From IMG/VR virus record IMGVR_UViG_3300028833_000053: a stretch of 64,000 nucleotides of DNA, one strand, 5' to 3'. A model generated the notes under the pieces. The model saw only the letters and a program-made list of their open reading frames with translations, did not search any database and was not told the origin of the DNA. Source of the stretch: a virus (Duplodnaviria; Caudoviricetes). Positions 41,930 through 43,045 of this stretch are shown here, piece by piece; position 1 is the stretch's first letter, and the number at the start of each line of letters is the position of its first letter. A program made the translations under genes and the position numbers.

Positions 41930-42182
41930 TTAGCACCGCGTCAATCTTGTCTTCGTCAAATTCAATGTCATCCTCATCGTCATCATCGCAAATGTGCATG
42001 AAACTGATGAAACACTGAACCGTGATTATGTACAGCGTCAAAATGGCATAGCCAAAGAAAACGAAAAGAAGGGGCAATAACGCCAAGAACAATGGTATTA
42101 TCCCCATGAACGCCAACACGAACAACCCAAGTTGTCCAACAATCCCTATGCACTTCAATATCGTTTTCATTTTATGCGCCAT
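41910..42182 (-). CDS. Small membrane protein with acidic tail
   Basis: Long hydrophobic stretch followed by DDDDED. Confidence 0.65.
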   Translation of the reverse strand: MAHKMKTILKCIGIVGQLGLFVLAFMGIIPLFLALLPLLFVFFGYAILTLYIITVQCFISFMHICDDDDEDDIEFDEDKIDAVLNDTSKD

Positions 42183-42206
42183 TTATCTGTATGTGAACTA
42201 CGCTTA

Positions 42207-42238
42207 ATTATACCACAACAAACCACCAGTTGTAAATA
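42207..42238. promoter_or_regulatory. Overlapping divergent promoters
   Basis: Minus: TTTACA-18-TATAAT; plus: GTAAATA 42232-42238. Confidence 0.55.
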
Positions 42239-42247
42239 CGTATAATT

Positions 42248-42474
42248 GAAACAGATTTGTGGGAACTCGGAACCTCTTTCGGAGTGGCTCATCCCTGTTC
42301 TCCAAATTCGGGATCACGCCCCGAAGGTCGCATTAATCGGACGTGGCAAGGTAGGAAACACGCCCGTTAGGTACAGGCATATATGTCCGGTATCTACTTT
42401 CTCCAGGCGGCTCGAAGATTCGCTCCGTGGGGTCGTACCCCTGGGATGGGAACGATAATGCCCATCCATTTTTT
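42248..42474 (+). ncRNA. Candidate structured non-coding RNA, family not recognised
   Basis: Between a GTAAATA motif and a terminator; run of GC-rich hairpins; no credible ORF. Confidence 0.6.
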
Positions 42475-42502
42475 ATGCTTCCATTTGGTAAATACCTATG
42501 CA

Positions 42503-43045
42503 ATGAAGTGGCTGAAACTACATAACGAAGCAACGGACCAAGAGGGCGGAGAAAGCAAGTCAATCCCGGTGGAAGTTTCCACAAGGGAGATAAAGCTCAT
42601 CCAGAACTACTTGAACAAGGGAAAGCCCTTGAACGATCCCTCAAACAAGGACGCTCTTGAAACGGTCATCCGGATATTGAACGACATCGTGAACAACTCC
42701 GACATCGAGAACCTTGAAACCTACGTCTCAAACTTCTTCTTCGACAACCTTGGAATAGAGGTGGAACTTGACCCCTATGGCGAAAACTCTGCAATTGAAC
42801 TTTCGGAGAATGGCATGATTCACCTGAGCCACTGCGAATGGGTGGACTTGTGCGATGAAGGAAAGTATGCGGACTTGGTTCAAGGCGGATTCTGGGATGA
42901 CTTCTCGGGAGAGCTTGAAGAGGGTTTCATTTCCGTTGAGGACTTGAACAAGGTTCTTTCCGGAATGAAAGTTGGAAATGGAGTGAAATCCATCCAACTG
43001 AAGGAAGAGGGCGACGTTGCGAAGCTGCTGTTGAATTTTAACTAA
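42503..43045 (+). CDS. Acidic protein with MKWLKLHNE leader (internal head protein candidate)
   Basis: GTAAATA 42488-42494; shared N-terminal motif. Confidence 0.7.
   Translation: MKWLKLHNEATDQEGGESKSIPVEVSTREIKLIQNYLNKGKPLNDPSNKDALETVIRILNDIVNNSDIENLETYVSNFFFDNLGIEVELDPYGENSAIELSENGMIHLSHCEWVDLCDEGKYADLVQGGFWDDFSGELEEGFISVEDLNKVLSGMKVGNGVKSIQLKEEGDVAKLLLNFN

Follow-up and report, generated by a model that had tools for sequence, protein, structure and literature searches.

The window analyzed in this study is a stretch of 64,000 nucleotides that corresponds to positions 137268–201267 on the minus strand of a 433,895-bp IMG/VR phage record (G000), which carries direct terminal repeats. A 320-nt gap between the divergent genes P0001 and P0003 of the window houses an RNA unit, whose position is ~159 kb into the 434-kb genome and far from the genome ends. 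The phage clade with this RNA is one of rumen megaphages whose genomes are ~415–435 kb, TAG-recoded and so far known from metagenomes only, and no relative was found in the GenBank phage collection, whether by DNA or by the P0003 protein. P0001 (41910–42182, minus strand) encodes an accessory two-helix membrane protein of 90 aa with an acidic tail; it is divergent from the RNA unit and lies outside it. Beyond P0001, P0002 encodes an SbcC/gp46-type ATPase (phrog_77, E 3e-60). The gene downstream of the RNA, P0003 (42503–43045, plus strand), encodes an acidic protein of 180 aa without a Pfam or PHROG match. The homologs of P0003 started at a conserved MKW and formed at least 70 clusters in public data (ENA and Logan assemblies). 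Its predicted model (pLDDT 81) contained three helices and a beta sheet, of which residues 1–17, including MKW, were disordered. Because this model had no match in PDB at E ≤ 0.001, the fold of P0003 offers no clue to the RNA.

The RNA predicted in the gap is ~222 nt long (about 220–225 nt; 42253–42474, plus strand), is bounded by a promoter and a terminator and contains no conserved reading frame. Its relatives were collected from IMG/VR and metagenome contigs by scans seeded with the P0002 and P0003 proteins. RNA homologs were found at the same site in five other distinct contigs, L026, L021, L028, L003 (=L025) and L024, and in all six cases the site lay between an SbcC/gp46-like gene and the P0003 gene. 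The homologs were of three sizes. The long form of ~225 nt was found in the window, L026 (80% identity) and L021 (76%), the intermediate form of ~215 nt in L028 and the short form of ~135 nt in L003 and L024, which were 92% alike. No RNA was found in L002 (=L022), L004, L023 and L027, where the flanking genes were just 50–80 nt apart. In L004, L023 and L027, the early-type box and the late-type box were fused as GATATAATTGGTAAATAC. The position of the RNA is thus precisely at the junction of an early-type -10 box and a late-type box. The late-box direct repeats that flank the insert on either side may provide a simple route for loss of the RNA.

A covariance model of the RNA core (CM R1), which comprised 170 positions and 37 pairs and whose seed excluded the short forms, scored the core in the window at 180 bits and recovered the unseeded short forms at 50–51 bits (E about 2e-11). 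CM R1 found a single copy in the genome of the phage and another in the L003 contig, but the complete genomes of the relatives G001 (418 kb) and G004 (414 kb) contained no copy. Given its absence from two complete relatives, the RNA is accessory. One weak hit in G001 (L032, E about 0.1–0.3) was inside a 252-aa ORF and was rejected as a chance match. The two deep branches of the P0003 family (~60% and ~72% protein identity to the window) both contained the RNA, which suggests that it is an old element that was lost several times. When IMG/VR and 185,579 prokaryotic genomes were scanned by patterns, a DNA pattern of the helices P2 and P3 described below matched the L003 contig only. A pattern of the 3' end matched 6 new viral and 75 prokaryotic loci, among which CM R1 identified no real homolog; the seven of these loci that were inspected contained unrelated sequence without a promoter-to-terminator unit. 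Further protein-seeded scans of IMG/VR yielded no additional relatives. Comparison of the window (41930–42502) with L002, L004, L023 and L027 also showed that the gap between the gp46 and P0003 genes is hyperplastic. It contained nothing, the RNA alone, the RNA with a small membrane protein (the window and L021) or the RNA with a 191-aa ORF (L003), of which L024 retained a decayed 3' remnant.

A -10-type promoter, GTATAATTG (42240–42248, plus strand; TATAAT at 42241–42246), precedes the RNA and was found in the same place in all six homologs, from which a transcription start near 42253 is predicted. A -35 box was not recognizable for this promoter. The sequence TATAATTGA occurs 24 times in the genome, where composition predicts ~5 copies, and often directly after a terminator. 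Immediately upstream of the promoter is a copy of the late-promoter box, TTGTAAATAC (42230–42239, plus strand), whose reverse complement provides the -35 box TTTACA of a divergent, minus-strand promoter of sigma70 type (TTTACA-18-TATAAT, 42236 to 42207, with 11 of 12 matches). The back-to-back promoters share bases within 42206–42248, where the plus strand reads TTGTAAATAC followed by GTATAATTG. The minus-strand promoter would drive P0001 in the window and the gp46/SbcC gene in the relatives.

The first-pass annotation considered the RNA a late transcript. GTAAATA occurs 128 times in the genome, and a G precedes 72% of all TAAATA. For 66% of the GTAAATA copies, an ORF of 80 aa or more starts with ATG within the next 40 nt, as compared with 9–31% for control heptamers. 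This genome-wide placement fits a late promoter of the gp55 type. Ahead of the RNA, however, GTAAATA was intact in the window only and was degenerate or absent in the homologs (degenerate in L026, L021 and L028), whereas the box conserved in six of six is the host-type GTATAATTG. As the conserved promoter is TATAAT and not GTAAATA, the designation as late is unsupported, and the RNA appears to be transcribed from the host-type promoter instead of the late box.

At the other end, the RNA unit is closed by an intrinsic terminator (42444–42474, plus strand), in which GGAUGGG and CCCAUCC (42444–42450/42461–42467) enclose a 10-nt loop and are followed by A and U6. The stem and the U-run were found in six of six homologs, and the stem never varied. 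A consensus terminator scan overlooked this terminator, because its loop of 10 nt exceeded the limit of 3–8 nt of the scan. Within the loop (42451–42460), the motif WACGA(U)AA was conserved in all six, which is unusual for a terminator. The first-pass annotation had given the RNA its own promoter and terminator, and every homolog indeed had a TATAAT box ahead and a terminator behind.

Downstream of the terminator, the segment 42487–42505 (plus strand) contains the late-type promoter box GGTAAATAC, a spacer of 8 nt and the ATG of P0003 (42503). The P0003 box, GTAAATAC, its spacing and the ATG were the same in every relative, irrespective of whether the RNA was present or absent, which bears out the earlier proposal that the RNA is a unit separate from the next gene. 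The order in the homologs was a GAUGGG...CCCAU hairpin with a U-run, then TTGGTAAATAC, 8 nt and the P0003 ATG. With GTAAATAC only 8 nt ahead of the ATG and no Shine-Dalgarno sequence in any of the relatives, the arrangement implies that the late mRNA of P0003 would be leaderless or nearly so. Of the 128 copies of GTAAATA in the genome, 25 are within 12 nt of the ATG of a long ORF.

Given that P0001 is small, hydrophobic, predicted to have two helices and divergent from the RNA, and that a like protein is found in L021, the RNA might be the antitoxin of a type I toxin-antitoxin pair with P0001 as the toxin. L021 was the only relative with a P0001-like protein, however, and none was found in L026, L024 and L028 despite the RNA there; together with L003, four of the six homologs carry the RNA without the membrane ORF. 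Moreover, the predicted transcripts are back to back, with starts ~50 nt apart and no overlap. The homologs without the ORF largely refute the toxin-antitoxin reading, which we regard as highly implausible. The P0001 and L021 proteins are both small two-helix membrane proteins with a run of Asp and Glu at the C-terminal end (DDDDEDD and DDDEDDEDE, respectively), and tblastn does not link the two, which are too diverged.

No reading frame was conserved among the homologs in six-frame translations, including those with TAG read as Gln. The homologs had stops at differing places and indels that were not multiples of three. Together with the covarying helices described below, these results agree with the first-pass view of a structured non-coding unit. 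It had also been noted that the RNA is not a tRNA, and ARAGORN found neither a tRNA nor a tmRNA gene in the window. Although the P2 hairpin combines a stem of 5 bp with a loop of 7 nt whose second position is U, a D arm, a T arm and an acceptor stem are absent.

The six stems listed in the first-pass annotation were all present. What it had overlooked is a long-range helix, P3, formed by GGUCGC and GCGGCU (42326–42331 with 42407–42412), which encloses two of the listed hairpins, P3a and P3b, and as a seventh helix ties the six stems into one fold. P3 was GGCUGC/GCAGCU, GGUUGC/GCAACC and GGCUGU/ACAGCC in homologs; it was 94% paired, with compensatory changes in three of its six pairs, and was predicted by RNAalifold. 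Ahead of P3, the P2 hairpin UCGGG/CCCGA (42308–42324; 42308–42312/42320–42324) has the 7-nt loop AUCACGC, with the consensus RUCAYVM. P2 was 100% paired across the six sequences, with compensatory changes in three of five pairs, and was also predicted independently by RNAalifold. The 5' domain (42255–42307) is found in the long forms only and consists of a stem of AUUUG/CAAAU and GGGAAC/GUUCUC (42255–42266/42297–42307) around a variable hairpin. In the MAFFT alignment A6, this stem of 10 pairs was 90% paired, and 2 pairs were changed on both sides. In L021, the same closing stem carries another inner hairpin. The UUCG of the hairpin reported earlier is indeed at 42278–42281, but the C:G closing pair is missing.

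Inside P3, the P3a hairpin CGG-A-CGUG/CACG-C-CCG (42338–42366; 42338–42345/42359–42366) has a loop at 42346–42358 and one A.C mismatch. It was 88% paired, with 3 pairs changed on both sides. P3b (AGGUAC..GG/CC..GUAUCU, 42369–42395; 42369–42374/42390–42395) was about 90% paired, with 2 compensatory pairs. Its loop contains a perfect 8-nt palindrome, CAUAUAUG (42378–42385), which is identical in L026, corresponds to CAUAUACG in L021 and to an AUAU core in L028, and has no counterpart in the short forms, from which P3a and P3b are absent. The palindromic loop is a possible site of loop-loop self-association. Downstream of P3, the linker CGAAGAUUCGCUCCGU (42413–42428) contains GAU and YCCGUG blocks that were found in all forms in the alignments. 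It is followed by P5, a small GGGG/CCCC hairpin (42429–42441; 42429–42432/42438–42441) that was 87.5% paired with one compensatory pair and is the weakest helix of the fold.

A pseudoknot between 42348–42355 and 42393–42400 had also been proposed. In this register, 1–2 pairs are lost in L026 and L021 without compensation, but a shifted register, in which GG(U)AGGAA of the P3a loop pairs with UUUCUCC (42350–42357 with 42398–42404), is kept. The shifted pairing was 93% paired. All seven pairs were retained in the three long forms, one through a change of G:U to A:U, and the bulged base varied. RNAalifold selected the same pairing. As none of the seven pairs shows a double compensatory change between long forms, the shifted pseudoknot stays a candidate. 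A pseudoknot of the P2 loop with CCGUG, which was 58% paired on A6 with L028 in the wrong register, is a weak lead. Finally, a short stem that would close P2 and P3 (AAUY/GAUU) was rejected, given that it has only 3–4 A:U pairs and clashes with P2 and the 5' domain.

The MFE of the single plus-strand sequence was -69.7 kcal/mol, as compared with -71.2 ± 4.7 kcal/mol for shuffles (z = +0.32). As the lone sequence folds no better than its shuffles, the structural support is wholly comparative. With four full-length sequences, RNAalifold found P2, P3 and P3b unaided, and 14 of 45 pairs were changed on both sides. When the full structure proposed here was placed on A6, the MAFFT alignment of four sequences, 90% of cells were paired, as compared with 38–52% in slid controls, in which the 3' partners were displaced by 1–3 columns so that relatedness was kept. 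In A6, 15 pairs were changed on both sides, a number that was reached by none of 500 shuffles. In the six-sequence CM alignment (A10), 94% of pair cells were standard, as compared with 34–50% in slid controls, and 12 of 37 pairs showed compensatory changes; A10 was fitted to the model and thus favors the structure, which A6 was not. The covariation check on homologs that the first-pass annotation had called for was therefore positive, with 90–94% of cells paired against 34–52% when slid and with compensatory pairs, on a base of six sequences from three lineages and with pair counts that are inflated both by derivation of the structure from the same sequences and by the fitting of A10 to it. 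G:U cells numbered 15 and A.C cells 3, an excess indicating that the plus strand is the RNA. The fold supported by covariation, when completed, was within 3.5 kcal/mol of the MFE. From these comparisons, the unit is very probably a real conserved structured RNA.

The same observations bear on whether the unit is non-functional and consists of the decayed remains of an accessory gene and a terminator, with covariation that arises from relatedness and structure fitting. The hyperplasticity of the locus, including the decayed remnant in L024 of the 191-aa ORF of L003, is in keeping with such decay, as are the folding z-score of +0.32 and the total of six sequences. The slid controls, however, retain relatedness and still reached only 34–52% against 90–94% paired. 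Moreover, P2 and P3 survive in all three forms despite the large insertions and deletions that distinguish these, the promoter and terminator are kept in six of six, and the homologs share no common frame. Non-functional remains are thus an improbable explanation.

The RNA had been described as unrecognized, and a search of Rfam had been recommended. No family of Rfam 15 matched at gathering thresholds in the whole window. With E up to 10, the RNA region gave four chance hits of 10.6–18.1 bits, as compared with thresholds of 37.8–45 bits, and the L028 and L003 homologs gave no match. Thus, none of the three forms matched a known family. In addition, no description of this RNA was found in the literature. 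The first-pass annotation suggested that the RNA could be a ribozyme, and a compact multi-helix core, a variable periphery and a candidate pseudoknot would suit a new class of RNA that cleaves itself, catalyzes another reaction or binds a ligand. Yet no ribozyme or riboswitch model of Rfam 15 matched any of the three forms with E up to 10, inspection revealed no junction sequences of hammerhead or HDV type, and the conserved unpaired blocks are few, with no pointer to a cleavage site. A ribozyme or similar RNA is therefore quite improbable, slightly more so than non-functional remains.

The position of the RNA raises a different possibility. P0003 always follows the RNA directly and on the same strand, as a gene behind a cis-acting leader would, and the RNA could be a leader, attenuator or insulator of the P0003 operon. 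An early-type promoter would once have driven P0003, and the RNA and its terminator would now stop or conditionally release early transcription, either as a riboswitch-like aptamer with a terminator platform or as a simple insulator, so that P0003 would be expressed solely from its late promoter. The exact position of the RNA between TATAATTG and GTAAATAC, which are fused as GATATAATTGGTAAATAC in the RNA-less L004, L023 and L027, is consistent with such a history, and the multi-helix, possibly pseudoknotted fold is of aptamer-like complexity. Similar to riboswitch and attenuator leaders, the RNA has a multi-helix domain, possibly with a pseudoknot, that is followed by an intrinsic terminator and a gene on the same strand. 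Different from these leaders, however, inspection of the six-sequence alignments revealed no conserved segment that competes with the terminator and could serve as antiterminator; a CAUCCC complement was found in the 5' domain of the window only. No riboswitch of Rfam matched, and the terminators are strong and canonical in six of six. Furthermore, the terminator is followed by a promoter box of P0003 itself, which is 8 nt from an ATG that has no Shine-Dalgarno sequence. A read-through transcript would thus offer an internal, unaided start codon to P0003, which does not fit a gene that depends on read-through. A plain insulator, in turn, would not need ~170 nt of covarying structure. Given these results, a cis-acting role is unlikely, although it keeps some plausibility.

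With its conserved promoter, a strong terminator in all forms and a next gene that has its own promoter, the RNA unit looks autonomous. We consider it probable, from features of the sequence from which the expression, ends and timing of the RNA were all deduced, that the RNA is a stand-alone, trans-acting structured RNA that is made early. A host-type (sigma70) polymerase would transcribe it early in infection, and the RNA would be released at its own terminator and then act in trans. What is conserved across the size forms are helices and short loop and junction motifs, and the peripheral domains are optional, which points to action by shape. Thus, the RNA would work via its fold and most likely serve as a decoy or modulator that binds a protein of the host or the phage, and such binding, not a long antisense seed, would serve host take-over or counter-defense. 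As aligned here, the conserved core is P2 with its RUCAY loop, P3, the GAU and YCCGUG blocks and the terminator with its WACGAAA loop.

Prophage sRNAs, such as DicF and IpeX, are stand-alone units that start at a promoter of their own and stop at a Rho-independent terminator; they act through a conserved single-stranded seed and, the terminator apart, are little structured. Similar to them, the RNA in this study is a short non-coding unit with a host-type promoter and a terminator with a U-tail, and it is accessory and in a variable region. The combination of an own promoter with a U-tailed terminator, by which sRNAs of the Hfq type are recognized, was found in six of six homologs. Different from DicF and IpeX, this RNA conserves ~37–56 base pairs in 7–9 helices and has no conspicuous seed; the blocks shared by all forms (the RUCAY loop, GAU and YCCGUG) are 6 nt or shorter. 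No sequence or model match was found between this RNA and sRNAs of the DicF/IpeX type.

rnaC and rnaD of T4 (species 1 and 2) are structured, stable non-tRNA RNAs that are dispensable, are encoded near genes of the internal-protein type and are cut out of the transcript of a tRNA cluster. By description, the RNA in this study is similar to rnaC and rnaD, as it is a structured non-tRNA RNA of a phage with T4-type late transcription and is near genes of the internal-protein type, but a promoter and a terminator of its own delimit it, and the window contains no tRNA. Similar to the pRNA of phi29, it is phage-encoded, structured, about 170–220 nt long and has its own promoter. Unlike that pRNA, which is essential and found in every relative, it is missing from G001 and G004 and is far from the genome ends. 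Palindromic hairpin loops are used for loop-loop self-association, and the phage-borne, structured GOLLD, ROOL and manA motif RNAs of Rfam, which are large, ornate RNAs of phages and bacteria capable of self-assembly, resemble the long forms with their palindromic loop CAUAUAUG. However, the RNA in this study is far smaller, and its short forms lack the palindromic loop.

Rather doubtfully, though less so than a ribozyme as such, the core might represent a new class of functional RNA beyond sequence binding, for which three options could be considered. By analogy, P2 resembles an anticodon arm: its stem has 5 bp, and in its 7-nt loop, position 2 is always U and positions 3–5 are CAC or CAU. 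P2 could act as a decoy that draws off a host defense nuclease directed at tRNAs. Alternatively, the RNA could self-associate via the palindromic P3b loop, or the core could be a new ribozyme or ligand sensor.

The RNA, a promoter-to-terminator unit with a covarying multi-helix fold, joins the few known structured RNAs of phages as a new family. Its three size forms survive, and it was lost from some complete relatives. Its modular build, a ~130–135-nt version with an optional 5' domain and two optional inner hairpins, marks the likely functional core. Should it turn out to modulate a host function or act as its decoy, it would parallel, at the RNA level, the accessory proteins with which such variable regions are filled.

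Annotation of phage genomes of at least 400 kb is almost solely of proteins, and in public protein sets the RNA is masked by over-extended P0003 calls of 196–220 aa, the first residues of which are the translated terminator. P0005 (220 aa) and P0018 (196 aa) are such calls and start within the RNA or its terminator. A like over-extension was read from the back-translation of P0006, P0014, P0016, P0022, P0046 and P0049. When TAG is read as Gln, the P0003 frame of the window, and of the window only, extends upstream through the whole RNA without a stop (42257–43045, plus strand; 262 aa). The N-terminal over-extensions of several P0003 homologs read like further variants of the terminator, and the back-translated P0006 and P0046 (YEN and YEK, respectively) suggest that in distant relatives the loop motif is perhaps kept over a different stem.
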